Positions 1,302 to 32,155 of a DNA stretch of 32,155 nucleotides are shown in pieces; within the stretch, counting starts at the first letter, position 1, and each line of letters opens with the position of its first letter. The notes beneath the pieces were generated by a model, which worked only from the letters and a program-made list of their open reading frames with translations, was not told the DNA's origin and ran no database searches. Both the position numbers and the translations under genes were made by a program. Source of the DNA: Macrostomum lignano (taxonomy: Eukaryota); NCBI GenBank assembly GCA_002269645.1, contig NIVC01004889.1:1-32155 (forward strand). The letters are read 5' to 3'.

Positions 1302-1313
1302 GTGAGAAGGCGC

Positions 1314-1590: not shown

Positions 1591-4015
1591 TTATTAATTT
1601 CCGGCGTGCCAACTGGGTCCTTTTCAAATTCACCCTGGAGAACTCGCTGTCTGACTTCAGCACTGACGGCAACGCTCATGGCGTCGAGAAGAATTTGCGC
1701 CGGATTATTCTCAAGGCGATGAAGACGGCCATCCCTGAAGGCCGATTCAAGCGCCAAGAAGCCTCGCCCTGCCCTGCTGTAATTCGCCACCTTCTAGCTG
1801 AACGCGACAAACTGCGCTCTGATGATGCTAGCGATCCTAGGATCCCTACACTCCAGAACCGCGTTACTGCTCTGATTGAAGAGGAACAACGTGCCCGATG
1901 GAACGATTTCTTGAATGAGCACGGGCAACAGCCTGCACCCACTCCGCATCTTTGGTCCACCATTAAACGTCTTTCCGGCCGTGTCACCTCCTCAGCTCGT
2001 AACATCATCATCCGTTTCGACGGAAGACCGACCTAGACCGACGCGGAGGCGGCTAATCGGCTTAATAAACAGTTCACGCAGCCGCGTGCTCACTGTTCGA
2101 ATCCAGCCATGCGCTTCGTCCGCCGCAAAGTTGCTGCACTCCCGCGCGAAGACCTGCTGCACTACCCTCTTGTATTTCTCCAAAGACAACCTGGTGCAGG
2201 CCATCAAACGCTCTAAGCCTTCGAAGGCTATCGGCCCTGACGGTATCTGTCCGCTAGTCATTAAACATTTCGGCCCCAAAGCCATCGACGTGCTCCTCGG
2301 CCTGTTCAACCGTTCGCTGCACTACAATGAAATCCCCGCGGTTTGGAAGAAATCGCTGATCTGCCCATTAATTAAAAGTGGCAAACCTCCGGATGACGGA
2401 GCCTCCTACCCCCCGATTTCGTTCCTCTCCCCGCTGGCTAAAATCTTTGAAAAACTCCTGCTGCCCCTGCTGACTGACCACCTTAAGCTCCCAGCTTGGC
2501 AGCACGGTTTCCGCCCAATGCACTCTACCACTACCGCATTGTGTCAGCTCGCCGAGCAGATCAGTACTGTTTTCTGCCAAGCCAAGCCCCGGCGAGAACT
2601 GGCACTGCTGCTCAGGATCTGAAGGCTGCCTTTGATTGTGTGGACCACTGTGAGCTCATCACCGACGTCTTCAACTCCGACCTGCCGAACCTCATCAAAG
2701 GCTGGCTCTGCAACTACCTTCTCGGTTGTCAAGCCCGCACAATACTCGTACTGCGCGACTGCAAGTCCGCCTGGCGCCAAGTTCGCATGGGAGTGCCCCA
2801 AGGTAGCGCGATCAACCCGCTTCTTTTCGCCTTCTACCTGAAGGACACCCCTACGCCGGATGACCCGAACTCCAGCCTTATCGGCTATGCCGATGACCTT
2901 ACAGCGGCTGCCTCTTCCGCGTCCATCTCGCGCATCCAAGAGCAACTCAACGCCTACTTAACGCGCTTGGCGCCGTTCCTCCATGCCCGCAAGCTCAAGG
3001 TCTCGGCAGCAAAATGCACCACGACGCTCTTCACTCCGGACCAACGGGAGTACGCCAAGGCCCTCGAGGTCTACTTCGACGGTTCCAGACTACCCCAGGC
3101 TCTCTTTCCTAAAATCCTGGGCGTGATCTTTGATCCGAAGATGACGTTCAGCCGTCACGTCAAGGCCACTATCGAGAAGGCCCACAAACATAACAGCGTC
3201 CTCCGCTGCTTGGCGGGTAGCAGTTGGGGCAGCTGCAAGGAGCTGCTGCTCAACACTTACAAGGCCATTTCGCGCAGCATCCTCAACTACGCTGCTCCTG
3301 TTTGGGGACCTGTCATCTCGTCCACCTCCTGGAACGGGCTCCAGTCGGTCCAAAACGCGGCCATTCGGTGCATCACCGGCTGCACCGTCAATACCTCTGT
3401 TGCCGACCTTCACTGCGAGACCCGGATGCTCCCGGTCCAGCAGCACAACAGGCTCCTGTCTCTCCAGTTCCTCCTGGCCTCTCGCCGTCCTGAGCACCCC
3501 TGCTACCACCTTTCCGCCTGCCCGGCTCCTCGCCGGCGCATGAAGCCGTCCATTTTTACCGCACCATTCTTTGACGATTCCTGGCAGCCAGTCGAAGCCC
3601 CGGCGGTCCTCGACGACGCGGCAGCCTGGGACAGGGCGAGGCGAGCTCAACACTCGCTCATCGTGCTCAATCACATCGACGGCCTACCTCCTAACCGCGT
3701 CGTCGGCCTTCGCCCCGACGTCTGCGATTCCGAGCGTTCTTTGCCGCGTCGGACCCGTTCTCTGCTCGCCCAGCTGCGCTCTGGCTTCAGTCCTATGCTT
3801 CGTAGTTACCAGCACCGGTTGAATCCTGAGACGCCTCCAAGCTGTCCTGAGTGCGACGCGGCCACGCATGATTGCCTGCATCTTTTTAATTGCCCGGCTC
3901 ACCCCACCGAGTTGGTGCCCTCTGACCTGTGGCGCAACCCTGTTGAAATCGCTGAGTTCCTGTCGCTGCCTGTCCAGCGCGACCCTGGCGAGGGTTAAAA
4001 ACAACAACAACAACA
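1591..4015 (+). mobile_element. 5'-truncated non-LTR retrotransposon (LINE): post-endonuclease linker, RT, C-terminal Cys/His knuckle, (AAC)n tail; no RNase H seen; clade not assigned
   Basis: NFRRANW linker start, SKAIGPDG, WKKSLICPLIK, QHGFRPMHST, DLKAAFDCVDH, GVPQGS, YADDL, LGVIFDPKMTF and CPECDAATHDCLHLFNC. TAA at 3996-3998 is followed directly by AAC repeats. Possible TSD ACCTGTCTA (1582-1590 / 4016-4024), not diagnostic inside the repeat. Confidence 0.93.
1595..3998 (+). pseudogene. Disrupted LINE ORF2 (reverse transcriptase)
   Basis: In-frame TAG at 2034-2036 plus frameshifts near 2170 and 2580-2620 split the RT over ORFs 1695..2036, 1915..2622 and 2496..3998. Confidence 0.88.
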
Positions 4016-4808
4016 ACCTGTCTACCGCTCTATCTACATATCTACCACTCTATCTACCTGTCTACCGCTCTATCTACATATCTACCGCTCTATCTACCTG
4101 TCTACCGCTCTATCTACATATCTACCGCTCTATCTACCTGTCTACCGCTCTATCTACCTGTCTACTGCTCTATCTACCTGTTTATCGCTCTGTCTACCTG
4201 TCTACTGCTCTATCTACCTGTTTATCGCTCTGTCTACCTGTCTACTGCTCTATCTACCTGTTTATCGCTCTATCTACCTGTCTACTGCTCTATCTACCTG
4301 TCTACCGCTCTATCTACCTGTCTACTGCTCTATCTACCTGTTTATCGCTCTATCTACCTGTCTACTGCTCTATCTACCTGTTTATCGCTCTATCTACCTG
4401 TCTACTGCTCTATCTACCTGTTTATCGCTCTATCTACCTGTTTATCGCTCTATCTACCTGTCTACTGCTCTATCTACCTGTTTATCGCTCTATCTACCTG
4501 TCTACCGCTCTATCTACCTGTCTACCGCTCTAATCACCCTGTCTACCGCTCTATCTACCTGTCTACCGCTCTATCTACCTGTTTATCGCTCTATCTACCT
4601 GTCTACCGCTCTATCTACCTGTTTATCGCTCTATCTACCTGTCTACCGCTCTAACCACCCTGTCTACCGCTCTATCTACCTGTCTACCGCTCTATCTACC
4701 TATATACTGCTCCATCTACCTCTGTACCGCTCTACCGCTCTATCTACCTGTCTACTGCTCTATCTACCTGTTTATCGCTCTATCTACCTGTCTACCGTTC
4801 TATCTACC
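4016..4808. repeat. 20-bp minisatellite, right part, intron 1
   Basis: Same TACCGCTCTATCTACCTGTC unit with TTTATCG/TACTG variants. Confidence 0.95.
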
Positions 4809-4906
4809 AAAAAATGAACAAAACAATTTCATGTCTGCCACTCTACCGCTGTGCACTTTGCAGTTTTTCTTAACCAAAACTTTATAAACCTGCCGCACTG
4901 TTCCAG

Positions 4907-5052
4907 TTTCCTACCAGTGGTCACCATGGCCCTTGTCCTGACAGCCATGCTGCTGCTCATTGGAGCCAATGTGGCCGCTGCGGTCCTTATCGACTGGCTG
5001 TCGCACAATGGAGTTGATAAGAAAATTCAGAACCTCTGCGCTGATTTAGCGG
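4907..5052 (+). CDS. TMEM94: TMEM94-like exon 2
   Basis: Acceptor TTCCAG (4901-4906), donor GTAAGA at 5053. Phase 2 in and phase 1 out fit the neighbours. Encodes the TM helix FLPVVTMALVLTAMLLLIGANVAAAVL. Confidence 0.8.
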
Positions 5053-5104
5053 GTAAGAATTTGGCGAAGACGACACGAACATTCGAGCACTGAATGATCG
5101 GATA

Positions 5105-5812
5105 GGATTAGAATCACTTCCTGTGGGATCTGAAGGATTAGAATCACTCCTAAGGGATCTGAGGGGATTAGAATCACTCCTGAGGGATCTGAGGGGATTT
5201 GAATCACTCCTGAGGGATCTGAGGGGATTAGAATCACTCCTGAGGGATCTGAGGCGATTATAATCACTCCTGAGGGATCTGAGGGGATTAGAATCACTTC
5301 TAGGGGATCTGAGAGATTAGAATCACTCCTGAGTGATCTGGGGGATTAGAATCACTCCTTAGTGATGTGAGGGGTTTAGAATCACTCATGGGGATCTGAG
5401 GGGATTAGAATCACTCATGGGGGATCTGAGGGGATTAGAATCACTCCTTAGTGATGTGAGGGGTTTAGAATCAGTCCTGGGGGATCTGAGGGGATTAGAA
5501 TCAGTCCTGAGGGATTTGAGGAGATTAGAATCACTCCTGAGGGATTTGGGGGGATTAGAATCACTCTTGAGGGGATTAGAATCACTCCTGAGGAGATTAG
5601 AATCACTCCTGAGGGATTTGGGGGATTAGAATCACTCTTGAGAGGATTAGAATCACTCTTGAGGTGATTAGAATCACTCTTGAGGGGATTAGAATCACTC
5701 TTGAGGGGATTAGAATCACTCCTGAGGGATCTGAGGGGATTAGAATCACTCCTGGGGGCGATTAGAATCACTCCTGAGGGGTTAGAATCACTCCTGAGGG
5801 GGTTAGAATCAC
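5105..5812. repeat. 30-bp / 21-bp minisatellite (GGGGATTAGAATCACTCCTGAGGGATCTGA), intron 2
   Basis: Tandem units read directly. Confidence 0.95.
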
Positions 5813-5857
5813 TCATACCGCTAAGAAATACATTGACTCGTATTGATTGCACTGAAG

Positions 5858-6372
5858 AGTACAGCCGCACCGTGAACTGGCCAGTCGAGTCAGCCTACCC
5901 GGACCTGAGCGCGCCCTCCGTGTCCACCATCCACTGCCACTGGACCCTCCGAGACGGGCACCTAATCAACCTACCTGCTATGCTATTGGTTCGCGACGAC
6001 ATTATCTACGTTCGTCCCGGCAGCGCTTTCAACGTGCACTGCTGCGAGTTGCCCCAGCAACAACAGTCGGAACAGTTGGCTAGATCGTTCGAACCGGATG
6101 ATCGGTACATGCCAGTGCTGCCTGATCCAGCCAGACGGTCGCTCAGCAGGCCCGTGTCTCACCGGGTTCTGCCGCCGCTGCGCTGCCGCGTGAAGCTGAC
6201 TCCGGCTGTGGATTTTGTTCGAGATTTTCTTAATCTGCACATTCGAGGCCGATCGGACTTGGACGCGCTGTTCGCCAGAGGCTGTCGGGCGTGTCTGGTC
6301 TGCGTGGGAGTCGCTTTTGCCGTGTGTTTGGTCGCCGCGCTGGCCAAACGGCACGTTATTGGGGAGGATTCG
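5858..6372 (+). CDS. TMEM94: TMEM94-like exon 3
   Basis: VNWPVESAYPDLSAPSVSTIHCHWTLRDGHLINLPAMLLVRDDIIYVRPG matches recalled human IQWPSAMYPDLHMPFAPSWSLHWAYRDGHLVNLPVSLLVEGDIIALRPG. AG at 5856-5857, donor GTAAGC at 6373. Confidence 0.88.
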
Positions 6373-6464
6373 GTAAGCTGTGCTGTAAGAGGGAGAGATA
6401 AAGATTTCGAATTTTATGACCTAAGCGTTTATAGTTCTTTAATTTTTAGTATATAGGATATGTG

Positions 6465-6960
6465 TACTTTAGTGCATCTAAAAGTACTTTAGGGGATTTT
6501 TACTATAGTGTAAAAGTACTCTTAGGCGGTGCGTACTTTAGATGAAAAGCACTTTTAAGGGACGTGTACTTTACTGCAAAAGTACTTTTAGGTTTCGTAC
6601 TTTTCTGCAAAAGTACTTTCAGGTTTTTTACTTTACTGTAAAAGTACTTTTATGGGTTTTGTACTTTACTGTAAAAGTACTTTTACGGCATGTGTACATT
6701 CGTTCAAAAATATATTCGTGATATTTGTGCTTTATATTGTGTAAAAGCGTACTTTAATGGACATCCACTTATGATAGGTGTACTTAGTAGTACAGATGCA
6801 CTCAAGTGTACATGTACTTCTGTGTAGCTGCACTTTATTCTAGATGCACTACTGTAGTCTGGATGTACTTTTGACTTTGTCTCTTTAATTTAACTTCGAT
6901 GTACTCTAGTTGGTGTACTTCAGGGTGAAGGTAAATGTGCTTTACACCAGGGTACTCCCA
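6465..6960. repeat. Degenerate ~32-bp repeat built on the palindrome AAAAGTACTTTT, intron 3
   Basis: AAAAGTACTTT/GTACTT recurs at ~30-33-bp spacing and decays 3'. Confidence 0.75.
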
Positions 6961-7016
6961 GTTGAAATGACGCAGACAAATTATTAAAGCTCTGCACTTT
7001 TACTCTGCACTTTTAG

Positions 7017-7391
7017 GTGTCAGCAGCCTACGCGCTGGCCTTCCCCTGCCTGGCCACCCTCCCCATCCTGCTGCTGTCCTGCCCGCCAATGTGGCACGCC
7101 CTGAACCTGTGGGAGCTGGCCAAAGCTCTGGTGCACGTGCACCGAACTTCTCTGGCTAGCGACGAGCTGCTTCGCCAGCCAGACAGGCCGCCATCGATGG
7201 ACAGCCTGACGGAGTCCATCGGCTCCCTGTCGGACCTGGACACCTGCGACACCACCGCTGCTGCCTCAATCGTTGCTGGCTGGCGAGACGCCTTGGCGAA
7301 GTTGATGTACCTGCTGACTGACAATGCGGAGGTGGACTGGAAGCTGGTGCACTCGTTTGGCACAATGTCCAGGCTGTGCTGCGCTGATAAG
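7017..7391 (+). CDS. TMEM94: TMEM94-like exon 4
   Basis: Acceptor TTTTAG, donor GTGCGA at 7392, phase 0. LVHSFGTMSRLCCADK matches recalled LLHSLGSVTVLCCVDK. Confidence 0.88.
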
Positions 7392-7400
7392 GTGCGACTT

Positions 7401-7769
7401 TGACTGCTCATAGTGCCAATTTGACTGATCATAATACCAATTTGACTGCTCATAGTGCCAATTTGACTGATCATAATACCAATTTGACTGCTCATAGTGC
7501 CAATTTGACTGATCATAATACCAATTTGACTGCTCATAGTGCCAATTTGACTGCTCATAATACCAATTTGACTGATCATACTTCTAATTTAACTACTCAT
7601 AGTGCCAATCTGACTGTTCATAGTGCCAATCTGACTGCTCATAGTGACAATTTGACTGCTCATAGTGACAATTTGACTGCTCATAGTGACAATCTGACTG
7701 CTCATAGTGACAATCTGACTGCTCATAGTGCCAATTTGACTGCTCATAGTGCCAATCTGACTGCTCATA
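7401..7769. repeat. 21-bp minisatellite (TGACTGCTCATAGTGCCAATT), intron 4
   Basis: Tandem units fill almost the whole intron. Confidence 0.95.
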
Positions 7770-7788
7770 CCGCTTCGCCTGTCTTCAG

Positions 7789-8256
7789 GAGGGCATCCTC
7801 AGCCTGCCCATCCCGCTGCCAGACAAAGTCTGTTTCTTACGCCGCAAGCACCGTCACCGCAGCACGCCCGCCCAGCGCAAGAAGTCGGACATGAGCTTGC
7901 AGACCTCCGAGGCCAACAGCGCCCTGCTGGACACGGAGGCGCATATTCACGTCCTGGACGTTTCGCATGACCCGAAGATTGCCTACCGACTGGACTTTGA
8001 CGATCCGCATTGGCGTCGGTTTTTGAAATCATTGAAGCCGCTGGGTCTGGCCATTCTGTTGAATAACTGCCACCCGTCTGCCAGGCCCAGCTATGACGCT
8101 TTCGCTCATCACGTGACCGCCGTCACGCTGCCGGATGATCCGCGCGCTTGCGTTAATAAGCGGCGTTGCCTGTGCGACTTGGCGAGGCTGATCGGCTTCA
8201 AGGATGCGGCTCGGGACCCCTTCAGCCTGCAGTTCACGCTGGGCACCTATCAGCAG
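7789..8256 (+). CDS. TMEM94: TMEM94-like exon 5
   Basis: Acceptor CTTCAG. EGILSLPIPLPDKVCFL, FDDPHWRRFLKSLKPLGLAILLN and LCDLARLIGF match TMEM94 motifs. Donor GT at 8257. Confidence 0.9.
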
Positions 8257-8304
8257 GTGGCTGCGGCATAGCGATGCTCTGTTTGAGTTTGCGATTTGGG
8301 TGCA

Positions 8305-8841
8305 GTGATTGATTGATTGATTGATTGATTTATTCCATTGATTGATTGATCGATTGATTGATTGAACTTGATTTTTGGATTGATTGATTGATTCTATTGA
8401 TTAATTTATTTATTCCATTGATTGATTGATTGATTGATTCTATTGATTAATTGGACTCGATTTATTGGATTGATTAATTGATTTATTTATTTATTAATTG
8501 ATTCAATTTATTGATTGATTGATTTTTTTATTCCATTAATTGATTGATTGATTAATTGAATTCGATTTATTGGATTGATTGAGTGATTGATTGATTCCAT
8601 TAATTGATTGATTGATTGATTGATTGATTCTATTGATTAATTGGATTCGATTTATTGGATTAATTGATTGATTCTATTGATTAATTGGATTCGATTTATT
8701 GGATTAATTGATTGATTCTATTGATTAATTGGATTCGATTTATTGGATTAATTGATTGATTCTATTGATTAATTGGATTCGATTTATTGGATTAATTGAT
8801 TGATTGATTGATTCTATTGATTAATTGGATTCGATTTATTG

Positions 8842-8873
<32 letters not shown>

Positions 8874-9365
8874 CTATTGATTAATTGGATTCGATTGATT
8901 GATTGATTGATTCTATTGATTAATTGGATTCGATTGATTGATTGATTGATTGAATTCGATTTATTGGATTGATTGATTGATTGATTGATTGATTCTATTG
9001 ATTAATTGGATTCGATTGATTGATTGATTGATTCTATTGATTAATTGGATTCCACTGATTGATTGATTTATTTATTTATTCCATTGATTGATTGAATAAT
9101 TGAATTTGATTTATTGATTGATTAATTGATTGATTGATTGATTGATTGATTAATTGATTCAATTTATTGATTGATTGATGAATTCAATGGATTGATTGAT
9201 CGAATGATTGGTTGATTCGATTGACTGATTGCTTTGATTGACTCATTGACTCATTACATTGATTCCATTGGTGAACTAAAAAATTAGATACAATTGATAA
9301 ATCGTAAATTAAGTTTACATTTTATGATTCAATTGATTGATAATTTAGTTCAGTTGATTGCTTTA
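8305..9365. repeat. (ATTG)n microsatellite with higher-order GATTCTATTGATTAATTGGATTCGATTTATTG units, intron 5
   Basis: Read directly. Confidence 0.95.
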
Positions 9366-9443
9366 TTGATTTTACGCTACTTGGGTATCTGTGCCGACAC
9401 ACACCCGAGCGTATTAATCTAGTATGCCAATTGCACATTTCAG

Positions 9444-9650
9444 GCCAGCAAGGAGGACCAGGGCAAGGACCAGTTCTTGAGGCTGCTCAGCGCGCTCAGA
9501 CAGAAGGCACCTGTCGGGCACACCTTCGGCTGCGCTGTGCAGCAGCGGCATCTGGGCGGGCAGTACTTTGTGCAGGGCTCGGCTGATGTGCTCGTGTCAG
9601 AGCTGTGTGCGGACTATTGGAATGGCAACTCTGTGTCTGCGCTCACTGAA
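9444..9650 (+). CDS. TMEM94: TMEM94-like exon 6
   Basis: Acceptor TTTCAG. QGSADVLVSELCADYWNG matches recalled QGTADVVLEACTDFWDG. Donor GTACAT at 9651, phase 0. Confidence 0.85.
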
Positions 9651-9710
9651 GTACATTGGGGTGTGCTCTGGTGGATTGAGTAGGGTTACCAGCATGTCAA
9701 ATTTGTTCTT

Positions 9711-10925
9711 GTAGGTTTGGTAGGGTTTATGGTAGGTTTGGTAGGGTTTATGGTAGGTTTGGTAGGGTTTATGGTAGGTTTTATGTTTCAATCAAGGCTT
9801 AGTAGGGTTTATGGTAGGTTTGGTAGTGTTTATGGTCGGTTTTATGTTTCCATCAAGGCTTCGTAGGGTTTATAGTAGGTTTGGTAGGGTTTATGGTAGG
9901 TTTTGTAGGGGTTATGGTAGGTTTTGTAGGGTTTATAGTAGGTTTGGTAGGTTTTATGTTTCAATCAAGGGTTGGTAGGGTTTATGGTAGGTTTAGTAGG
10001 GTTTCTGGTAGGTTTGGTAGGGTTTATGGTAGGTTTGGTAGGGTTTATGGTAGGTTTAGTAGGGTTTATGGTAGGTTTGGTAGGGTAGGGTTTATGATAG
10101 GGTTTATAGTAATTCTGGTAGGTTTGGTAGGGTTTCTGGTAGGTTTGGTAGGGTTTATAGTAGGTTTAGTAGGGTTTCTGGTAGGTTTGGTAGGGTTTAT
10201 GGTAGGTTTGGTAGGGTTTATGGTAGGTTTGGTAGGGTAGGGTTTATGGTAGGTTTAGTAGGGTTTATGGTAGGTTTGGTAGGGTTTCTGGTAGGTTTGG
10301 TAGGGTTTATGGTAGGTTTGGTAGGGTAGGGTTTTATGGTAGGGTTTGTAGTAATTCTGGTAGGGTTTATGGTAGGTTTGGTAGGGTTTCTGGTAGGTTT
10401 GGTAGGGTTTATGGTAGGGTTTGTAGTAATTCTGGTAGGGTTTCTGGTAGGTTTGGTAGGGTTTCTGGTAGGTTTGGTAGGGTTTATGGTAGGTTTGGTA
10501 GGGTTTATGGTAGGTTTGGTAGGGTTTATGGTAGGTTTGGTAGGGTAGGGTTTATGGTAGGTTTGGTAGGGTAGGGTTTATAGTAGGGTTTGTAGTAATT
10601 CTGGTAGGGTTTCTGGTAGGTTTGGTAGGGTTTATGGTAGGGTTTGTAGTAATTCTGGTAGGGTTTCTGGTAGGTTTGGTAGGGTTTCTGGTAGGTTTGG
10701 TAGGGTTTATGGTAGGTTTAGTAGGGTTTCTGGTAGGTTTGGTAGGGTTTCTGGTAGGTTTGGTAGGGTTTCTGGTAGGTTTGGTAGGGTTTATGGTAGG
10801 TTTGGTAGGGTTTATGGTAGGTTTAGTAGGGTTTATGGTAGGTTTGGTAGGGTTTATGGTAGGTTTGGTAGGGTTTTTGGTAGGTTTATTAGGGTTCATG
10901 GTAGGTTTGGTAGGTTTCCTAGGGC
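9711..10925. repeat. 21-bp G/T-rich minisatellite (GGTAGGTTTGGTAGGGTTTAT), intron 6
   Basis: Tandem units read directly. Confidence 0.95.
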
Positions 10926-11020
10926 TTTGTAGGAAGTCGTTCGAGCTCAACTGAACTCAAACTCAACCCAGGAGTCTCAAATGCAGCCAACTGGCTCTCC
11001 GCTCCCCGCCCTTTACCCAG

Positions 11021-11566
11021 CTGGACCGCAAGCGCCTGCTCAACTTCTACAGCCGGCACAGCTACTCAAGCTATTGCGACGCATTCGCTTACACGCCCGT
11101 GCTCAACAAGATGTCGCCGGCAGGCGGCAGCGGCGATCGATGCGTCGAATTGCCGCCGTTCCGGCTGAGCTCAGAGGAGGCTGAGGATCCGCCCACGCCA
11201 ATGCTGCTCAACACGCCTCTGTCAAGGACGTTCAGCGCTGAGACAACTTTGCATCGATCGTCCAATTTGTCCCTGACAGACGTAGACACCTGTCTGAGCA
11301 TGCAGAGCGGCCAGGTGTTTCTAGGAATGGTGGCCTCCCAGTTCCAGGCCAACTCCGATGTTGTCAGGCTCATCGACCAGCTGGAGCTGGGCTGCATCCG
11401 GTTCGTGTACTTTAGCGAGGAGAACGAACTGCGTAGCAGAGGATTCGCTGAACGTCTGGGACTCGAATCCGGCTGGAACTGTCACATCTCGCTGAGGAGC
11501 GACTCGTGCGGCGGCAGCAGGGCTACAGTGACCGCGGACAGGGAGCCGGTGCCCGCAGGCCTGACC
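11021..11566 (+). CDS. TMEM94: TMEM94-like exon 7 (last exon found; the C-terminal half of the gene is not in this window)
   Basis: LDRKRLLNFYSR, YCDAFAY and GQVFLGMVASQFQANSDVVRLIDQLELGCIRFVYFSEENELRSRGFAERLGLESGWNCHISL match the TMEM94 signature CIRFVYFS...GWNCHISL. Donor GTGAGT at 11567. Exons 1-7 join in frame (2523 nt, 841 codons). Confidence 0.92.
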
Positions 11567-11634
11567 GTGAGTCTTGGGTTCCATTGGCTGAGGGTGTCTG
11601 GTCGGATGCGTGCGATTGGGTCAGTGGGGTTGGT

Positions 11635-11946
11635 CTGATCTGGGTCAATGGGATCAGTGTCTGAGTCAATGAGATCAGTGTCTGGGTCAATAGGATCAGT
11701 GTCTGGGTCAATGGGATCAGTGTCTGAGTCAATGGGATCAGTGTCTGGGTCAATGGGATCAGTGTTTGGGTCAATGGTATCAGTGTCTGGGTCAATGGGA
11801 TCAGTGTTTGGGTCAATGGGATCAGTGTCTGGGTCAATGCGATCAGTGTCTGGGTCAATGGGATCAGTGTCTGGGTCAATGGGATCAGTGTTTGGGTCAA
11901 TGGGATCAGTGTCTGGGTCAGTGGGATCAGTGTATGGGTCAATGGG
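11635..11946. repeat. 21-bp minisatellite (GGGTCAATGGGATCAGTGTCT), intron 7, cut off by the Maverick
   Basis: Tandem units stop mid-unit at GGGTCAATGGG|AGTAGT. Confidence 0.95.
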
Positions 11947-22264: not shown

Positions 22265-22474
22265 TTATGTTCCTGAAAAACTCTTGGTTTTAGTTAGTTT
22301 CGTAGGTGTGGGTTTTAACAATTCCTTTCTTATTTTATCAGCTTGTAACTGCCTTAATTTTGCTAGTTCTAGTTCGTAATTATCTTCAGCTTTTTTAACT
22401 TTTTCTGATTGTTTTTTTATTAAATTATTATTATTATCGTGCTTTGCACGCGAACATGTTGTTCGATTACCCAT
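22265..22474 (-). CDS. Small basic coiled-coil protein, 69 aa, possible N-myristoylation (MGNRTTCS)
   Basis: AAAA-ATG start; fills the gap between penton and protease exactly. Confidence 0.55.
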   Translation of the reverse strand: MGNRTTCSRAKHDNNNNLIKKQSEKVKKAEDNYELELAKLRQLQADKIRKELLKPTPTKLTKTKSFSGT

Positions 22475-22484
22475 TTTTACAGTA

Positions 22485-23269
22485 CTAAACCTGTTTTATA
22501 CGTAAAATTATTGTTATTGACTGCCCACCAAAACTTATTAATCTATCGCTTTCATCTACAATCCTAATATAAATTGATTGAACATTATATTGATTTAATG
22601 GGTAATATATTGGGGTTTGGGTGCAACAATCATTTTCTCTCCAATTGGAACAGCAAGAAATGGGATTGAATAAATAATTCCACGTTGAACCAAAACTCCG
22701 TTATCGTCTGTTATATAACCACCGTTTGAAATGTCGGTTGTTATATTAATTGTATTTACTCCACCCTCTATATTTCCAACTGTATCACCGGTGCTTGATG
22801 TGGTAACTATTCGGGAATTAAATCCAAGTATGGTTCTGAGTGAATTTGCAATTGTGAAATCAACCTGATATCCGGATCCTAGTGATAGTGTGAATCTGCC
22901 AGACGGTAAATCAACACCTATAACAATTGCTCCTGCTACCCAATCACCATTAGTTGTTAATTCTCCTTCTATATAAGCATTCAAATCAGTATAGCTATAC
23001 GCTCCTGGGTTAACGCTAAATGTTGTCCAATTGGCTCCGGAATCTTTAGAATATCTAAATTGATTATTTGTTGCATTAATTAATTGAGGCATGTTGAAAA
23101 CCGAAAATAGTATTAAACCTATTTGATAACTTAGGCTTTGATCAAGTTGTAATGGATCGCGCAATTGAATCCGTTGCTCGCTGGTTGTCATTATAAACTG
23201 TAATGTTGTACTAAATTTTGAATTAGTTCGATCTACCAATTGTTTTATAGTATTTAAATTTGTAGTCAT
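22485..23269 (-). CDS. Minor capsid protein (penton, single jelly-roll), ~261 aa; frameshift near 22612-22618
   Basis: DPLQLD...YQIGL...FN...INATNNQFRY, PGAYSYTDLNAYI, DFTIANSLRTILGF, VN.INITTDI..GY. One added base gives IYYPLNQYNVQSIYIRIVDESDRLISFGGQSITIILRIKQV-stop. Confidence 0.85.
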
Positions 23270-23271
23270 TT

Positions 23272-24121
23272 TTATAGTGGGAAATTAATCGGACGAAGTC
23301 CGCGTTCCGATCGTATTCGTCTACGCGTGCTATGCTCCTCTTCTTCATTATCTTCTTTTATCAAATTTGTTAAAATTCTATGTTTCCTTTCTAACCTCGG
23401 ATTGATATAAATATGTTTGTATTGGCTATCATCCCAAATTTTTTTACACATACTTTTAAATGGTTTTGCATCCAATCCGGGATTAAATCTAGCGTGATAT
23501 TTTGTAATCATAGTTATCTAAATCAAACATTACACAACAGCTAGCATTCTTTTTTATAATCGATTCTAATTCTCTAAAGGATTGAGTAAGATAAAAAGCT
23601 CCAATTCCATCTCCTCTACCACTAACAAAAATTTCCTTTTGCAATTCTTGATCACCGTCATTAATACAATCATCAAAAATAATTAGTGTTTTATCATGTT
23701 TTGGAATTTGATCATAGGCTAATCGGGTTGATACTCTAACAGTTGGGGCTCGATCGGACGAAGTCCGCGACCCTTCGGGGCGATCGGTGATGTTTTCTGG
23801 CTGTTGTGCCATTGTTTTACATAAATCCTCAATGTCTGCTAGATTAAATCGCGGTTCGTCATCATCCTCATATTGCTCATATGCTCTTAACATTCTAAAC
23901 AAGACATCTTTTTTTAATTTGTTTTTTAATCCATGTTTAAGAAATTCATAATATTTTATTCTAGGTTTATTAGTATAAATTATTAAATTATTATAGTCTA
24001 ACATTCCATCTGTTGTTAATAAATCGTAAACAAAGTGTGTTTTTCCTTTACCTGATCCTCCGATTACTAAACAAAGAAAAGGATCATTTGGAAATATTTT
24101 ATTGTGTTTTGCCTTTACCAT
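23272..24121 (-). CDS. FtsK/HerA-type (A32-like) genome packaging ATPase; frameshift near 23512-23517
   Basis: Walker A LVIGGSGKGKT, Walker B LIIFDD, GRG..IGAFYLTQSF, then KKNAS. C-terminus continues in ORF 23272..23511. Confidence 0.92.
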
Positions 24122-24186
24122 TTTTAAAGAAATAATTTAAATAGGCGCGACGGTCGGAGACGGACACCGACGTGCTTTGCACTGCA

Positions 24187-25659
24187 CTAAAGTGGTGCGT
24201 CCCGAACAATCGTGCCATCAGCTTTAGCAATTGACATATATTCCTCTAGAAACAATACGTGGGCGTCAAGTGCCTGATTACCGGTTTTATTAATCTCTAA
24301 CATATAATTAAGTCCAATATTGGCTACGTTTTCTTTCTGTGCCGTTAGATCATAAACAACCACTGGATGAATGTTTAGAAACTCTGTGGGTGTGTACTGA
24401 GGGACGGCATACGCTTCATTTTTGGCATAATCTTGATAATATTTTATAAAATCATTAACATTATTATTTGCTATATTTAAATTTAGGGGGTCTTTAACCG
24501 GATAATATTGATCATCAACCTGCAGGCGGATATTCTGAACATTAAACTCGTTAATAGCTGCAGCCGCATTGTCTGTTGCGGTGGCTGCTTGTTCTGCTAT
24601 GGCACCGGATTGAAGCCAATATAAATCCCCATTTGCTCTTTTACTCCTTCTATTTGTTATCTTAAACCAAACAAAAATATATCTCACCCGACGTTTTGAT
24701 GTCAGTATTTGCCACTGGAATGAATCCTGGTTATTATTAATGGTTCGCATAAAATGTCGACGATTCAAATAAAATATTTCCTGATCATGCGTTAACTGAT
24801 TATCGATGTGTTTTAAAAGTGGGGCTGTTACCTCAATAGTTGGTACGACTAATTGAATTGAATCTATACGAACTGCTATATCGGTTGAAATTGAGGTTCC
24901 ATAAAGTATCCTAGGCTGATATCCACCAGATATTTGCAACTGTATCCCAAATTTTAATCCTTTCCATACCCGATTTGGTGAGAAAAACCCAAATAGTGGA
25001 AAGATTGAAAAGTCCTGCTCATATGCTGTTGCTGTGGTTAAAACCGCGACTGGGAATTTATTCTGACGATCTATAAAACCAGTATTAATATCTTTTGTAT
25101 TAGTCATAGTGGTTACAACTGGAACTATGTTTGTATTAAGGTAAACAATTAGCGCTGCAGTATCTGCACCGGCTGCGTTTTGTACATTAGGGAAAACTAC
25201 TGCTTGACCGTTACCTTTATCCGGCATCCACCCAACATTATCACCAACTTGTTTTGATAAATAAGTATAATTTAAATGTTTCAAAACTCCATTAATCTCT
25301 GCGGGGTTTGATGATGTCTCAACCTCAGCACCATTAACAGTTAGTTGAGCTTGGGAAAAACATTTATAAAACCAATCATTTTCTATTATTATTCCGGATC
25401 GATCTGCGATATCTCCGGCTGCAAGAGCAGTTCCATCATTTCTAGTATACAACCATCTAACGCGGAAAAACGCATTTTTCATATCCAATATAGTGTTGGT
25501 TGCGCCGATGTCAAAAGTTACCGTTCCAGTAGTAAAGTTATTTGAATTATCACTTGTTGGTAGGGTATAATTTAAATCTCTTGCTCTGACCTCATTAATA
25601 TACTGTCGGTGCTTTTTGAAATGAAATTTATCACTCCACATAGTTTTTGTTTCAGCCAT
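24187..25659 (-). CDS. Major capsid protein (double jelly-roll), 490 aa, intact
   Basis: VTFDI...LDMKNAFFRV, NDWFYKCFSQAQLTVNG.EVE..NP, RRVRYIFVWF, NIRLQVDDQYYP, FLNIHPVVVYDLTAQKE follow the Polinton MCP pattern. Size and position next to the ATPase fit. Confidence 0.87.
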   Translation of the reverse strand: MAETKTMWSDKFHFKKHRQYINEVRARDLNYTLPTSDNSNNFTTGTVTFDIGATNTILDMKNAFFRVRWLYTRNDGTALAAGDIADRSGIIIENDWFYKCFSQAQLTVNGAEVETSSNPAEINGVLKHLNYTYLSKQVGDNVGWMPDKGNGQAVVFPNVQNAAGADTAALIVYLNTNIVPVVTTMTNTKDINTGFIDRQNKFPVAVLTTATAYEQDFSIFPLFGFFSPNRVWKGLKFGIQLQISGGYQPRILYGTSISTDIAVRIDSIQLVVPTIEVTAPLLKHIDNQLTHDQEIFYLNRRHFMRTINNNQDSFQWQILTSKRRVRYIFVWFKITNRRSKRANGDLYWLQSGAIAEQAATATDNAAAAINEFNVQNIRLQVDDQYYPVKDPLNLNIANNNVNDFIKYYQDYAKNEAYAVPQYTPTEFLNIHPVVVYDLTAQKENVANIGLNYMLEINKTGNQALDAHVLFLEEYMSIAKADGTIVRDAPL

Positions 25660-25693
25660 TTTTTTAAGTTAAAAAAGTTTTTTATGTTAAAAA

Positions 25694-26358
25694 ATGAGTC
25701 AATTTATGGACGTTGATGGAGAGTTAGCGATTTATAAAGAGAAGCAAAGATATTCTGATTTTGTTAGAAATTTACAAAAAAGAAAGTTAGGAATACAATT
25801 AGCTGGCGAAAGATTTGCTGCTCCTTTTGTTAATCCTATTACTGGGAAAATTAGTGAACTAGAAAAAACAGATAAAGATCTTCTGGAAAAAATTGCTAAA
25901 AATACGAGCCAAAAGAGGATGAAATTTTGGATGAGCCGCCTGCTTATGATGTTGATCAAGCAATATTTAGAGTTGCAGAATTAGACGTGAGAGATTAGGG
26001 GTGGAGTTGAACAATATCCAAGAGATGCGCCACTAGTATTGCTGCGACAGATTTAGGTGGTGGTAATTATCGAATTGGTAGTTGATAAAATCGAAATGAA
26101 CTATATAGAGAATTGGGCGGAGCATTTAATATTATTACGAACCCTAGGGTAAAATTTAACCCTGATTTATATACTAGGGATGAATTAATAAGTGCTAGAA
26201 TTTTTTATGATGAGTTAGGAGGAGCTGTTAAAAATACCAGCTTGTATAAAAGGATTGTTAATTCTATAAATAACAAACCAGCTGTTGGTGATGGATTTAA
26301 AACACCGCGAAAACTTGTTTTAGCTGCTGCGAAAGCTGCTGGACATACTGGAGTTTAA
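25694..26358 (+). CDS. Conserved Maverick protein (PZ/PW-like, function unknown), ~220 aa, broken by about 3-4 frameshifts
   Basis: FVNPITGKI, NYRIG, YTRDEL...Y.RIV, and C-terminal GDG...LV..AAKAAGHTGV resemble recalled Maverick motifs (F.PIT..L; YT..DL..Y; G.G...L.AS..AGNT). Exact junctions are uncertain. Confidence 0.5.
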
Positions 26359-26385
26359 TTAATTGTTAAATTTATTTTTTATAAA

Positions 26386-26955
26386 ATGGATGAAACAAAA
26401 ATTTGTACTACGTGTAAAATTGAGAAACCGATGACTAAAGAATTTTTTTGTTGGAGAAATGACACAAAAAAATTTAAAAATCTTTGTCGATCTTGTGAGA
26501 AAGTTAAATGTACTATGTGGAGAATAAACAATAAAGATAAATGTAATAAATATGCAAAAAATAAATATCGCACTGATGAAAATTTCAAAAATATTAGTCT
26601 AATTAGAGCTAAAATAACTTGGGCATTGAGAACTTTTCATGACAAACATTATATCTCATATCTTGGTTGCACAAAAGAATTCTTTTTTGATTGGTTAAAT
26701 TTCACAAGAAATTATTATGTTCCAAAAAATTATACTGGAAAGTTAGATATTGATCATTTCATTCCCGCTTCTTCATTTAATTACAAAGACGATGATCAGA
26801 TTAAAAAGTCTGAAAATTGGAGAAATAAAAGATACTTAACTAGCGTAGATAATAACTATAAAAAAGTTAAACAACCAACAATTGAAGAATTTGCGAAACA
26901 ATTGGTGCTATCATGTATTTTTAAGGCTATTAAAAATGAACCAAATAGTGTTTGA
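26386..26955 (+). CDS. Free-standing HNH (beta-beta-alpha-Me) endonuclease with N-terminal C4 zinc finger, 189 aa, intact
   Basis: CTTC...CRSC; YLGCT..F..WL; DIDHFIPASSF...NWRN...L..VDN..K, the pattern of giant-virus/phage HNH endonucleases (IDH.IP...F......NL.PL...DN..K). Confidence 0.85.
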   Translation: MDETKICTTCKIEKPMTKEFFCWRNDTKKFKNLCRSCEKVKCTMWRINNKDKCNKYAKNKYRTDENFKNISLIRAKITWALRTFHDKHYISYLGCTKEFFFDWLNFTRNYYVPKNYTGKLDIDHFIPASSFNYKDDDQIKKSENWRNKRYLTSVDNNYKKVKQPTIEEFAKQLVLSCIFKAIKNEPNSV

Positions 26956-27061
26956 AGGAGGATTTTTAGACTTACAAAAAGGATTAACGAGCTTACCACC
27001 AATCTTTACTACTGGTAAATATACAGGGGAACTACACCTACCATCAATGAACTTCACAGGT
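26936..27061 (+). CDS. PLA2-integrase fusion gene, exon 1 (42 codons, MNQIVFEGGFLDL...ELHLPSMNFTG)
   Basis: TAAAA-ATG start. ELHLP..NFTG is the first half of the parvovirus-type PLA2 Ca-binding loop, completed by PGT at 27365. Confidence 0.88.
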
Positions 27062-27364
27062 TAACCCGTGGCCTGAGTGAGGAAGGCAATGTCCTTGCTA
27101 GTCACTATTTGTGGCGACATCTCCAAATTGCGTGAAACCCGTCATACAGCTTCAAGTACCACTTCAAGTGAGAAATCTTTTGAAGGAACAGAGGTAACTC
27201 CTCTTCCCAAAGGTAAAAAGCTTGAAGACACGGTGGCAATGCGCAGCCAAGCTCCTAAGTATTTTAAATATAAGGAGAAGGTTCAGAGAGCAGACGGAGA
27301 TGGGCGGTAATTATCGCCGCTTAAGGTGTGCTCCAGCCTCATTCGAAAGATTGAGGGTAAACAG
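27062..27364 (+). ncRNA. Group I self-splicing intron, subgroup IC1-like, 303 nt, no internal ORF of note
   Basis: Exon-terminal U27061 pairs with G27071 in P1 (CAGGU/GCCUG); intron ends in G27364. P3 CAUCUCC 27118-24/GGAGAUG 27296-302. P element AAAUUGCGUGAAA 27125-37; Q AAUGCGCAGC 27238-47; R GUUCAGAGAGCAGA 27281-94; S AAGGUGUGCUCC 27323-34. P7 is fully paired with G27288-C27333. P5abc has GAAA and GUAA tetraloops; P8; P9 with GAAA loop. GC ~47% by hand count. Confidence 0.95.
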
Positions 27365-28532
27365 CCGGGGACTAGACTGGATTTAAGATTAAATCCTGAC
27401 AATACTCCAAAATCTGATTCAATTCCAATAAATGGGATTGATTGGTTAGCATACTATCACGACTTAGCATATAGAGATGCTGACAAGAACCCGCCCGAGG
27501 AAGCATTAAGATTAAAACATGAAGCCGATCAAAAAATGATTCAAGGATTAGATAACTTGCAGGGATTATCGGTAGGTCAAAAATTAACTAGGTGGATGGT
27601 TAAAAAGATCTTGCAGTCTAAAGTTAAATTTGGTTTGGGAATTAATTATAATCAACATGGAAATAATTGTGTTGAGTGTTTGTTATTAAGTGGTGGGTTA
27701 AGTTCTGATGAGGCAAAGATTCTTCATAAAGAATATCGAAAACCTAAATTTTATAGAAAAATCATGAACTTCAAAAAGAATGAAATTTGGTATGCTGATT
27801 TAATGTCGATGCCGAACGAAAGAGGATATAAATATATCTTAACCATATTAGATGGTTTTACTCGATACGCGTGGGCTGTTCCTTTAAAATCCAAAAAGGA
27901 GAGGAGGTTGCTGCTGCTTTTAGAAGTCTTGGAGAAAAAAGCGAACGTTTGTGTGTTGACGAAGGAAAAGAATTTTACAATCCTCATATGTATAAATTGT
28001 ATCATTTTGAAAAAGGACAAGAAAGGAAAAAGACGCGAATGGGGAGTATATTAATAAAATTTATTCTATTTATGGAGAGAGTAAAAACGCATTAATAGAA
28101 AGATTTAATAGAACTTTAGGTAAGAAATTATGGTTTCAGTTTAGTCTTAATGGTAACCAAAAATGGGTAAAAATATTACCAGACGTAGTGAAAGATTATA
28201 ACAATTCATATCATTCGGCGATAAAGATGACTCCTCAACAAGCTTATAACAATCCTGAAAATGTTAGGGTTACTTTTGGAAAATTTGAAAAAAAAAAAAA
28301 AATTTTAAGTTGGTGATTCTGTTTATATCTATAAATGGAAAGATAAGTTTGAAAAGGGAAGAAAAGGATATTGGAAGATAAGTGAGAAATTTACTATCAG
28401 TAAAGTTTTAAATACCAATCCTACAACCTATATAATTGCTGATAAGGACGGTGAAGAAATATTGGGTTCTTTTTATGAGAACAGATATTATCTGCAACTA
28501 AGTTCGATCAGTTACTTAAGACAACATGGTAG
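27365..28532 (+). CDS. PLA2-integrase fusion gene, exon 2: parvovirus-type phospholipase A2, linker, rve (DDE) integrase, SH3-like C-terminal domain; frameshifts near 27895, 28025, 28288-28308 and ~28480
   Basis: PGTRLDLRL...PINGIDWLAYYHDLAY...EAD (HD dyad). Then LHKEYRK, WYADL (D), YILTILDGFTRYAWAVPLKSK, CVDEGKEFYN (D), LIERFNRTL (E), YNNSYHSAIKMTP, VGDSV...KFEKG...GSFYE. No chromodomain seen; the 3' end is approximate. Confidence 0.9.
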
Positions 28533-28564
28533 TAAATTTTTTATAACAAACAAAAACAATATTA

Positions 28565-28735
28565 TTACATAATTGTTACTAATATTATTATTGACATTTG
28601 TTCAACTGTTATCAAACTTAAATTTTCATTAAGTTCATTAATCGGCACATTTCCGATGTAGGAATAGTTTACCTTCATTTTTTTATATATATTTTTCACA
28701 ATAAATGTCGTTTCTGTTATAGAATAATAGTTCAT
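28565..28735 (-). CDS. Possible small ORF, 56 aa (MNYYSITETTF...)
   Basis: A-run before ATG and fills an otherwise empty gap; no motif. Confidence 0.35.
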   Translation of the reverse strand: MNYYSITETTFIVKNIYKKMKVNYSYIGNVPINELNENLSLITVEQMSIIILVTIM

Positions 28736-28751
28736 TTTTTAAATATTTTTT

Positions 28752-29066
28752 TCACATAAAAATTTCACTTTCATTCTCTGAATCACTGGTTTCATATGAA
28801 CTATTTGTTGATTCGGAATCTGTTGATCTAACCTCCCAATCATCCGAATTTAAATAATCTCCAAGTTGAAATATTAACTCACCCTCTTGTTCTAAATCAT
28901 ACATCTCATCTAGCTCTAATGGATAAAGTTTTAGGTCGTGCTTGTCGTCATATTTTAAATAAACTTCATCAATTATTCCATTCAAAATATGTTGTTTTAT
29001 TATCTCTGCATTTTTAGCAACAGTCTCAAAAGTATCACTAACAGAAAAGGTGTAAACTCGGTTCAT
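28752..29066 (-). CDS. Acidic hypothetical protein, 104 aa
   Basis: TATAAAAA-ATG 18 bp inside the right TIR; Ser/Glu/Asp-rich tail. Confidence 0.6.
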   Translation of the reverse strand: MNRVYTFSVSDTFETVAKNAEIIKQHILNGIIDEVYLKYDDKHDLKLYPLELDEMYDLEQEGELIFQLGDYLNSDDWEVRSTDSESTNSSYETSDSENESEIFM

Positions 29067-29083
29067 TTTTTATAACAGAAAAA

Positions 29084-29404
29084 GACCCTTCGCGCCTGCG
29101 GCGCGTGCGACGGGTTCTAGAAAGTTTGTGTGTGTTGGAGAGAGTTGGAAGCGTTGACGATACAAAATACCCAGCAAACCAAAGCGAGCGACGAGGGCGT
29201 GTTCTCACCATTCAAAAAGAATTAATCGTTGTAAGTGTGAAATGGCCTGTTTGACCGAAATGAAGCGAGGATGAGCGAAGCGAGTTGAGCGAAGTGAAGA
29301 CGAGCGAAAATGAAGGGAAACAGGCCATTTCACACTGATAAAGGGTTAAATTGTTTGCAATGGTGAGAATGGTTTGCTGGGTATTTTGTATGGTATATAC
29401 TACT
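29084..29404 (-). repeat. Right terminal inverted repeat (321 bp)
   Basis: Ends GTATATACTACT at 29404; reverse complement of the left TIR. Confidence 0.96.
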
Positions 29405-29559
29405 TTTGCCAATGTAACGGAGCTTTTGTCTATGGTAGCAAGGCTGGCACAGCGGCATTTAATTTGGTCCAACAAGCATTAACTTGGTCCATAGATTCAT
29501 TTGCAACTGCTGTGGTGGAGCAAGATTAGCCTAAGAATTGTGGACCATATGCTGGGCTT

Positions 29560-29900
29560 GTGATCGAAGCACTGGACAGAGGTGAACACCCAAAGGACAT
29601 TGCAAGGCTCCTGAATGTAAAAGAAAATATGGTTTACAACACCCGTCAGCGCGTTGAAACCACTGGCGGCAAAGATCGCCTGCCAAAGGGGTGAAAATCA
29701 CCAAGACAAGTTGCGAGAGCCTCTGGTCCAACTGCTACTCGATGCAGTTGAGACGAACCTTTGTTGACGTTGCAGAAAATGCAACAGAAGTTGAAGGATC
29801 TCCGTTGCATTGTTAAACCTTTCTTGGATTAAATTCAATGCGGAAAAAGCTACGTATATTTAGCAAAAGATTTCCGACAGCTGACCAAAATTCTGACAAG
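29560..29900 (+). pseudogene. Degenerate Tc1/IS630-like transposase 5' fragment (HTH region)
   Basis: VIEALDRGEHPKDIARLLNVKENMVYNTRQRVETTG (HTH-like), then in shifted frames KLREPLVQLLLDAVETN / LTLQKMQQKL / RKKLRI. No DDE core or TIRs found. Confidence 0.55.
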
Positions 29901-30896
29901 TCGGCAGAAACCAGGGCATGCTTAGCATTTAATCTGTCCAGATATTGTTGCAGGGTGAAAGTGACTTTATCTAAGCCATCAATGACGTCAAATCAACTGA
30001 TATTCACTTGTGTGCAGTCGATTTATTCATGAGATAAATCTGGCACAGTCACGACTTAATATCACAGGTGTGACCAGTTGCTCATTAGCAGTTACCTTCT
30101 GTTCTTACTTTTGCACTCCTATACAACACTTATTATCTAGATAGTTCTCAAATTAATAACCAACACTGCTGAGTTCACGGCTGATAAAACATAAGCGGCC
30201 ATCTGCTATCTCATCTTCATCTTTGCGTCGCTGACCAAGCGCACTTCACCTGTCTAATTACAATCATTTCTGCAGGAGGGAGAACAGTGAAGAATTGGCG
30301 CAGAGTGTGAGCGACAGGTGCAACAATCTAGGCACCGAAGCGCTAATTCACCCAATAATATGAGGTATGCTGCAAAAAAAAATTCCACGCGTTTTTTCTA
30401 ACGCGTCGGGAATTAAGAATTTGACGCACATACTAGCCGAATCTGGCCGAATAACACTATGCATGTTATAACACTATGCTACACAATTCACAAAGCTACA
30501 ATCAATACCATCTATGAGAAAAAATCTATAGTAGATTGGTGTATTCACGGGCAGCACGGATGCAACCGTTTTTATCTCCATAGTATCATGCTAGAGTAGA
30601 GAGTTGGGATGTTTTAGAGTAGTAACGCAATCGTCTTTTCATAACATTCACTGGTTGGGCATCTGCTGATACAGAGGGGGGGGGGGCTTAATACGGCTTG
30701 TCGTTAGCCCAGTCCTCGTAGAAAATATCAATATCGCTGCAGGGGATTTTAGGCATATAAATACTACGCATATATTGACGGGTTCAATACTTCTGCATTG
30801 ACAGTTGGGAGTAGAGTGGCGGGATATAAGCCACAGCGAGCTCAGTAAAACTGAACTGCTGCGGGCAAGTGCAAGGATTCCGTCAAGCTTTACAAA

Positions 30897-31024
30897 CATA
30901 CAGACGGATACAGACAGACACTAAAAAAAGAGAGACATACAGATAAAAAGGCAGAAAGACAGACAGACAGACAGACCGACAGACATACAGATAGACATAC
31001 AGTAATACAGACAGACATACAGTA

Positions 31025-31099
<75 letters not shown>

Positions 31100-31100
31100 T

Positions 31101-31155
<55 letters not shown>

Positions 31156-31194
31156 TACAGATAGACATACAGTAATACAGACAGACATACAGTA

Positions 31195-31241
<47 letters not shown>

Positions 31242-31242
31242 T

Positions 31243-31275
<33 letters not shown>

Positions 31276-31305
31276 AAGACAGACAGACAGACAGACAGAC
31301 ACTCT

Positions 31306-31341
<36 letters not shown>

Positions 31342-31474
31342 TACAGTAAGACAGACAGACAGACAGACAGGACAGACAGACAGACAGACAGATACAGACA
31401 GATAGACAGACAGACATACAGATAGACATACAGTAATACAGACAACATACAGTAATACAGACAGACATACAGTA

Positions 31475-31509
<35 letters not shown>

Positions 31510-31530
31510 GACAGACAGACAGATACAGAC

Positions 31531-31573
<43 letters not shown>

Positions 31574-31607
31574 ATACAGACAGATAGACAGACAGACAGA
31601 ACAGAAC

Positions 31608-31639
<32 letters not shown>

Positions 31640-31643
31640 CTCT

Positions 31644-31727
<84 letters not shown>

Positions 31728-31739
31728 ATAGACAGACAA

Positions 31740-31798
<59 letters not shown>

Positions 31799-31837
31799 TA
31801 CATACAGATAGACAGACAGACAGACAGACATACAGTA

Positions 31838-31880
<43 letters not shown>

Positions 31881-32019
31881 AGACAGACCGACACATACAT
31901 ACAGATAGACAGACAGACAGACAGACATACAGTAAGACACGACAGACAGACATACAGATAGACAGACAGACAGACAGACATACAGATAGACATACAGTAA
32001 GACAGACAGACATACAGTA

Positions 32020-32068
<49 letters not shown>

Positions 32069-32100
32069 CAGATAGACAGACAGACAGACACAATACAGTA

Positions 32101-32149
<49 letters not shown>

Positions 32150-32155
32150 TACAGA
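30897..32155. repeat. (GACA)n microsatellite with CATACAGTAA interruptions, runs off the window
   Basis: Read directly; explains the ORFs at 30883-32150. Confidence 0.98.

Follow-up and report, generated by a model that had tools for sequence, protein, structure and literature searches.

A group I intron, probably mobile, in a PLA2-integrase fusion gene of a Maverick with a probable animal host

In the parts of the literature covered here, adintoviruses or group 2 Maverick-Polintons with PLA2 (PLA2X) are described as having pPolB, an rve integrase, an A32 ATPase, a protease, a parvovirus-type PLA2 and TIRs, and in adintoviruses as well as in insect Mavericks the PLA2 is reported to have a gene of its own (PMC8502044; PMC5803895; PMC3671162; 10.64898/2026.06.19.733378). 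In adintoviruses the PLA2 gene has a pX-like tail, the integrase has a chromodomain (PMC11071296), and the accounts of the adintovirus/Maverick PLA2 gene, as far as covered, are without a group I intron. The element studied here has the same set of genes, the protease being a probable one, and TIRs, but its PLA2 is fused to the integrase and its pX-like protein is separate, its integrase is without a chromodomain (the last frame ends at 28532), and its PLA2-integrase gene holds a group I intron.

The element lies in a 32,155-nt stretch of DNA, which was analysed as a whole and is called the window below (see Table 1 for the features). By its TIRs and gene set it is a Maverick/polinton: a Pfam search finds pPolB (PF03175), an A32 ATPase (PF04665), an rve integrase and PLA2. 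The capsid and cysteine protease genes have no profile match in Pfam or PHROGs; the assignments made for them and for the penton gene, from size, position and known motifs, are probable. The probable protease, with motifs read by eye, has His, Asp and Gln in one frame and the Cys motif in another, i.e. it is a broken copy. The N-terminal part of pPolB has a DGNCF motif, presumably like that of a vOTU protease. A fibre-like region (19419-21535, minus strand) and penton/ATPase regions (22595-23269 and 23489-24121, minus strand) are apparently split or shortened by frame changes, as is a gene of unassigned kind (25694-26358, plus strand), unlike the open MCP. Since the TIRs are near-identical and the MCP and polymerase have long open frames, this copy seems to carry assembly indels or to have decayed recently. 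No target-site duplication is found, and the flanking sequences at the two element ends differ; Mavericks/Polintons have a target-site duplication of 6 bp, and its absence bears on the history of the insertion, not on the gene set.

Upstream of the element are two colinear TMEM94/ERMA-like exons, several kb apart and with minisatellites between and around them. The Maverick begins about 300 nt past the second TMEM94-like ORF, probably inside an intron, and no later TMEM94 exon was recognised by eye in 29405-31000. We infer a eukaryotic host with long introns, which judging by the sequence is probably an invertebrate animal; TMEM94 also has non-animal relatives. Other features in the window include a non-LTR retrotransposon reverse transcriptase in two frames (1915-3998, plus strand), an ORF (5980-6453) with no match in a PDB sequence search, a short frame next to the right TIR that by eye resembles a Tc1/mariner helix-turn-helix (29530-29694, plus strand), a long low-complexity repeat of tetranucleotide type (30883-32155), and many further minisatellites in 364-12139.

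Table 1. Features of the window, with positions counted from its first nucleotide
Feature	Position	Strand	Remarks
TMEM94/ERMA-like exons (two, colinear)	7891-8268 and 11111-11635	+	E 5e-14 and 5e-26 to PDB chains
Maverick/polinton element, 17.5 kb, low-GC	11947..29404		321-nt TIRs and gene set
TIRs	11947-12267 and 29084-29404		321-nt arms, one mismatch (320/321 identical)
pX-like core protein, 249 aa	13115..13864	+	Adeno_PX E 0.007 (weak)
pPolB	13948-17567	+	split by one frame change near 14900; 908-codon frame open
Probable adenain/Ulp1-type protease	21750..22263 (start approximate)	-	motifs by eye
MCP, 490 aa	24187-25659		open frame
189-aa ORF, probable free-standing HNH/endonuclease VII nuclease	26386..26955	+	overlaps PLA2 start by 20 nt
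PLA2-integrase exon 1, 42 codons	26936..27061	+	ATG 26936; N-terminal GG motif; ends at Gly of PLA2 loop
Group I intron, 303 nt, no ORF	27062..27364	+	RF00028
Exon 2, parvovirus-type PLA2 domain	27365..27640	+	H-D-x-x-Y and downstream Asp kept; ends KFGLG (conserved GxG)
Exon 2, variable linker with LSGG|L	27641..27720	+	disordered in P0001 model
Exon 2, rve integrase, no chromodomain	27721..28532	+	broken by at least three frame changes

The initial annotation of this locus had read PLA2 and integrase as one ORF. The in-frame junction is there, since exon 2 is stop-free through KVKFGLG and LLSGGLSSDEAKILHK into the integrase, but a single frame up to 28532 is not, since the frame from 27365 hits a stop at 28054. 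According to tblastn with intact homologues, the integrase changes frame near 27874-27892, 28035-28041 and 28301-28303 (homology departs from the 27365 frame near 27890, ahead of the last two members of the DDE triad, Asp and Glu), and the final codons ahead of TAG at 28532 are, read by eye, in yet another frame. The PLA2 of exon 2 matches PF08398 with an E-value of 0.005, too weak to pass the cut-off; a PDB sequence search with it gave no match. Its H32, D33, Y36, D55 and G90 are invariant across 26 aligned proteins. The Gly loop and the His-Asp-x-x-Tyr and Asp residues, which we take to be the catalytic motifs of parvovirus-type PLA2, are all present, and the Tyr of the loop is replaced by Phe in the window as well as in the homologue P0001.

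Homologues bear out the suspicion, voiced in the same annotation, that the fusion occurs in relatives: it is genuine and common, and an assembly artefact as its source is ruled out by the fused homologues. Out of 41 long homologues, 38 carry both PLA2 and integrase, and of the 580 representatives from clustering at 50% identity, the best 150 include 65 with both domains; the homology query was itself fused, so that these counts are not the frequency of fusion among Mavericks. The 190 proteins in total include 102 with both domains (about three of them doubtful), 71 with PLA2 only (many of these matches being fragments of fusions) and 17 with integrase only, and many of the homologues are not independent (P0005-P0026 are largely one lineage). 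PLA2 and rve integrase as a single protein is a trait of a widespread Maverick clade. The structure model of P0001 (pLDDT 85) has two domains joined by a linker with pLDDT below 50 at residues 120-136, and its folds match foamy-virus integrase (E 1e-10) and an entomopoxvirus PLA2 (E 8e-5). An extension past the integrase end is found in just one of the 26 aligned proteins, and the chromodomain is mostly absent from the clade. We note that P0069, P0133 and P0160 have a helical insert of 220-250 residues between PLA2 and integrase, flanked on both sides by LG-containing motifs.

An internal ATG had been put forward as a way for the integrase to bypass the intron, in which case the integrase would have its own start within exon 2 and the fusion would be incidental. 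Exon 2 has five in-frame ATGs, and other Mavericks are described, in the part of the source covered, as having separate integrase genes (PMC5803895). The linkers of 100 fusions (two of the 102 were dropped as incomplete matches) contain a Met in only 20 cases, however, and the window linker has none. The Met at 27764 falls after a conserved HK-RK block and is not conserved: eight of the nine relatives shown have Ile, Val or another residue there, and in the other one a Met sits one column before it. An open junction in about 100 proteins further argues for selection on read-through, and we consider a separate integrase start very improbable, the least probable of the readings discussed here.

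The intron was found by a local Rfam scan of 601 nt, in which RF00028 matches with 65.7 bits (E 1.9e-16; gathering score 50 bits); a scan of the whole window at the gathering threshold gave 0 matches. Its boundaries were set by the U-G pair at the 5' site, the terminal G and the intron-free P0001 (76% identical), whose residues 1-32 align to 26966-27061 (72%) and whose residues from 33 onward align from 27365, i.e. the exons are joined exactly at 27061/27365. All of P1-P10 can pair, with P2, P2.1 and a P5abc-like extension in addition: P1 has the U-G at the 5' site, P3 (7/7) and P7 (5/5) are Watson-Crick throughout, and P4, P5a, P6a/b, P8, P9 and a short P10 pair as well. The subclass is presumably IC1-like. 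The P7 sequence departs from the Rfam consensus on both strands, yet still pairs, which argues for constraint on the intron; the z of the intron is -2.18. The insertion point is between two near-invariant PLA2 residues in the most conserved loop, and group I introns are described, in the covered part of PMC5360047, as inserting in conserved regions. The intron is thus intact in its predicted fold, and self-splicing is predicted.

Two statements of the initial annotation on splicing hold for the window allele. From ATG 26936 the frame is open for 42 codons and then meets TAA as the first codon of the intron (further in-frame stops follow at 27074 and 27308, after that at 27062), so that unspliced RNA would give 42 aa. 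Both domains need splicing, as the conserved GPGT loop would be lost with each of the 11 in-frame GT-AG options; spliceosomal removal was rejected for the same reason.

The locus could also be a dead relic or a mis-assembly, with an intron that no longer splices or an element that is not in an animal chromosome (a chimeric join or a non-animal host); animal cells would then have nothing new at work in them. The missing target-site duplication and the many frame changes in the element are in line with this, and the identity of the host by sequence rests on the two TMEM94-like exons. The TIRs, which are identical at all but one position, the pairing of all intron helices, the open frames of the MCP and of the polymerase, and two flanks that both look like host DNA speak against it, and we find this reading rather unlikely.

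To see how the intron is distributed among alleles, exon 1 of P0009 was used as the query among short proteins, which gave 70 matches (clusters). Nine of these clusters (65 member sequences) break out of the frame at precisely the junction, with YLG-Q[MT]PVA-stop as their end. At the same codon the window has G-stop-PVA-stop, in which the stop-PVA-stop is the start of the intron, in the P1/guide region. Another 47 continue in the PLA2 frame (43 short proteins that read straight through the site plus P0197, P0229, P0242 and P0246), and the remaining 14 break earlier or are without the motif. Moreover, 7 of 258 proteins begin with a Met right before PGTRL, as the terminal G would give, and the short leader of P0008 (MCTS...) resembles the VCSS of the window at the P7 strand. 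Exon 1 of intron-bearing and intron-free proteins has up to 53 of 55 residues in common, and identity with the window is higher for the intron-free P0001 (76%) and P0003 (58%) than for the other lineage that has the intron (45%). Going by these predicted protein ends, the same intron most likely occupies one and the same codon position in two lineages that are far apart, and is missing from many alleles. The part of P0148 ahead of the junction is unrelated in sequence, and P0002 begins only past it; both may stem from additional alleles that carry the intron and are closer to the window. In the search for DNA of relatives, genome contigs gave 19 pattern matches, none of them confirmed, and a 16-nt intron core gave 81 loci versus 278 expected by chance, with no longer match (one of the 81 loci has a partner motif). 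The best blastn match among phages has an E-value of 0.3.

A shared site with patchy alleles is the pattern of a mobile intron (or of repeated loss), not of a required switch. It had been proposed that the ribozyme acts as a regulatory gate, making entry and integration conditional on splicing, with LSGG|L as the processing site. This would fit the dependence of both domains on splicing in the window allele, the large number of intron-bearing alleles in the second lineage (65 members) and the presence of an adenain-type motif at this position in the two closest relatives (IHGK|G and LYGS|G). The gating claim is not supported by the comparison with relatives, because P0001 is intron-free at 76% identity and one lineage has both alleles; intron-free alleles occur in both lineages, no sensor-like domain was seen in the intron, and the strict motif is found in few linkers (see below). 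We therefore regard a gate as improbable, and a mobile, optional intron as the better reading.

A candidate for the homing enzyme of this intron is the ORF just upstream of the PLA2 start. Its 189-aa product has weak matches to PHROGs endonuclease VII (E 0.001) and HNH (E 0.003) and weak phage tblastn matches (E 0.004-0.07), and the nearest named atlas cluster is HNH at 0.89. No Pfam match and no direct homologue was found, and the structure model is poor (pLDDT 44). Collaborative homing, i.e. an intron that works with an adjoining free-standing nuclease, is described in the covered parts of PMC11296320 and 10.64898/2026.10.13.758929.

The adenain consensus is (M/I/L)XGG|X (PMC7998265), and the protease of mavirus cleaves at GG|X and GX|G, motifs that are stated, in the part of the paper covered, without a P4 rule (PMC6048507). 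The linker between PLA2 and integrase is 3 to 249 residues long in the 100 fusions (median 15.5). A GxG closes the PLA2 domain in 74 of them, and in 89 the stretch from the last PLA2 helix to the integrase contains GG or GxG, as compared to 1.3% in the control (length-matched integrase windows, 95 proteins, 200 draws). GG or GxG is also found ahead of PLA2 in 72 of 105 proteins, and in the P0001 model the GxG site lies at the boundary of helix and disorder. The LSGG|L of the window fits the adenain consensus, as had been stated, but fails as the cleavage site of the family: the strict motif, (M/I/L)XGG|X or (M/I/L)XGX|G, follows the PLA2 end in 8 of 100 linkers, those of the two closest relatives included (18 when the PLA2 end is counted as well). 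It is also present in 6 of 17 element ORFs (exon 2, and once each in MCP, penton, ATPase and two others), so that a single match is weak evidence. KFGL|G is the better candidate cleavage site, with LSGG|L as a local second site.

The fusion may instead stay uncut, with PLA2 as a tag on the integrase for both packaging and membrane crossing and GxG merely the end of the PLA2 fold. GxG is equally common in PLA2-only proteins (45/57, some of which end right after it) and so may be a structural cap; many PLA2-only matches, however, are fragments of fusions. Five fusions have just three residues from GxG to the integrase, 11 of the 100 have no GG or GxG at all, and P4 is mostly Lys and not M/I/L (K/R-hydrophobic-GxG in 61/100). 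On the other side, the mavirus motifs carry no P4 rule, and the pX-like protein has nine GG-hydrophobic or GxG-hydrophobic motifs in its 249 aa, a motif type that is absent from the MCP and the N-terminal polymerase ORF, and it is likely a protease substrate that reveals the cleavage preference of the element. All in all, an uncut fusion appears unlikely, although it is the alternative to which we give the most room. The pX-like protein has two pX-like hydrophobic repeats after GG plus six GxG-hydrophobic repeats, and its product is likely a polyprotein of small virion peptides.

Our preferred explanation, which we hold to be probable but far from certain, is an optional, mobile group I intron in the gene of a conserved packaged precursor, beside a probable free-standing HNH nuclease. 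The PLA2-integrase precursor would most likely be packaged in the virion, where the protease of the element would cut the G-x|G that closes PLA2 and probably also the GG before PLA2. Cutting would free an entry enzyme and an integrase, and the fusion would so deliver the integrase into particles. The packaged, protease-cut precursor of the initial annotation is plausible, given that in mavirus the integrase is packaged and the protease cleaves at GG|X and GX|G. A group I intron has invaded the most conserved PLA2 loop, as a neutral passenger that would leave the mRNA by itself and hence be tolerated in an essential gene; its fold is intact, its splicing is predicted, and its presence in the second lineage is suggested by protein ends. 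The overlapping upstream HNH-like gene would most likely spread the intron by cutting intron-free alleles through collaborative homing, which is the weakest step. The copy in the window has either decayed or acquired indels in assembly.

An intact group I intron in an essential gene of an endogenous virus of a probable animal would mean that mRNA is spliced by a ribozyme in animal cells, and its patchy distribution would mean that Mavericks come into contact and exchange DNA. With the fusion comes a testable explanation of how the integrase gets into Maverick particles, as well as a named processing site. A regulatory gate, if true, would matter more but is unlikely, and the significance rests on the intron in a probable animal virus and on the fusion, not on gating. 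In the open-access articles searched, we found neither the PLA2-integrase fusion nor an animal Maverick with a group I intron reported: a term search of the covered part of a coral paper (PMC11131425) gave no occurrence, the covered part of PMC11161782 has no mention of PLA2, and a nematode paper, as far as covered, goes no further than to speculate that an HNH domain came from an intron (10.1101/2023.08.22.554363). Group I introns are known from protist viruses.

Among known systems, mavirus (PMC6048507) and adenovirus with its adenain (PMC7998265) have a Clan CE protease, like the probable one here, and GG|X and GX|G motifs, in the parts of these papers covered, but the conserved GxG site here has Lys at P4, versus M/I/L in the adenain consensus. 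Mavirus virions hold the integrase and a cut, lipid-hydrolase-like protein, but from separate genes. Eukaryotic nuclear group I introns are described from rDNA and animal ones from non-bilaterian mitochondria, according to the covered part of PMC5360047. Phage collaborative homing (PMC11296320, covered in part) shares with the window an ORF-less intron, predicted to be self-splicing in the window, beside a free-standing nuclease gene, but is described for phages, whereas here the setting is a eukaryotic endogenous virus with a putative nuclease. An ORF-less RF00028 intron of about 300 nt in a viral protein gene is likewise found in protist polinton-like viruses (PMC12220804) and chloroviruses (PMC7019647), where, in the portions covered, the hosts are cryptophytes, Paulinella and green algae and the genes encode a short protein before the MCP, or TFIIS. 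Unlike these, the intron in the window has a probable animal host and lies in a PLA2-integrase gene.
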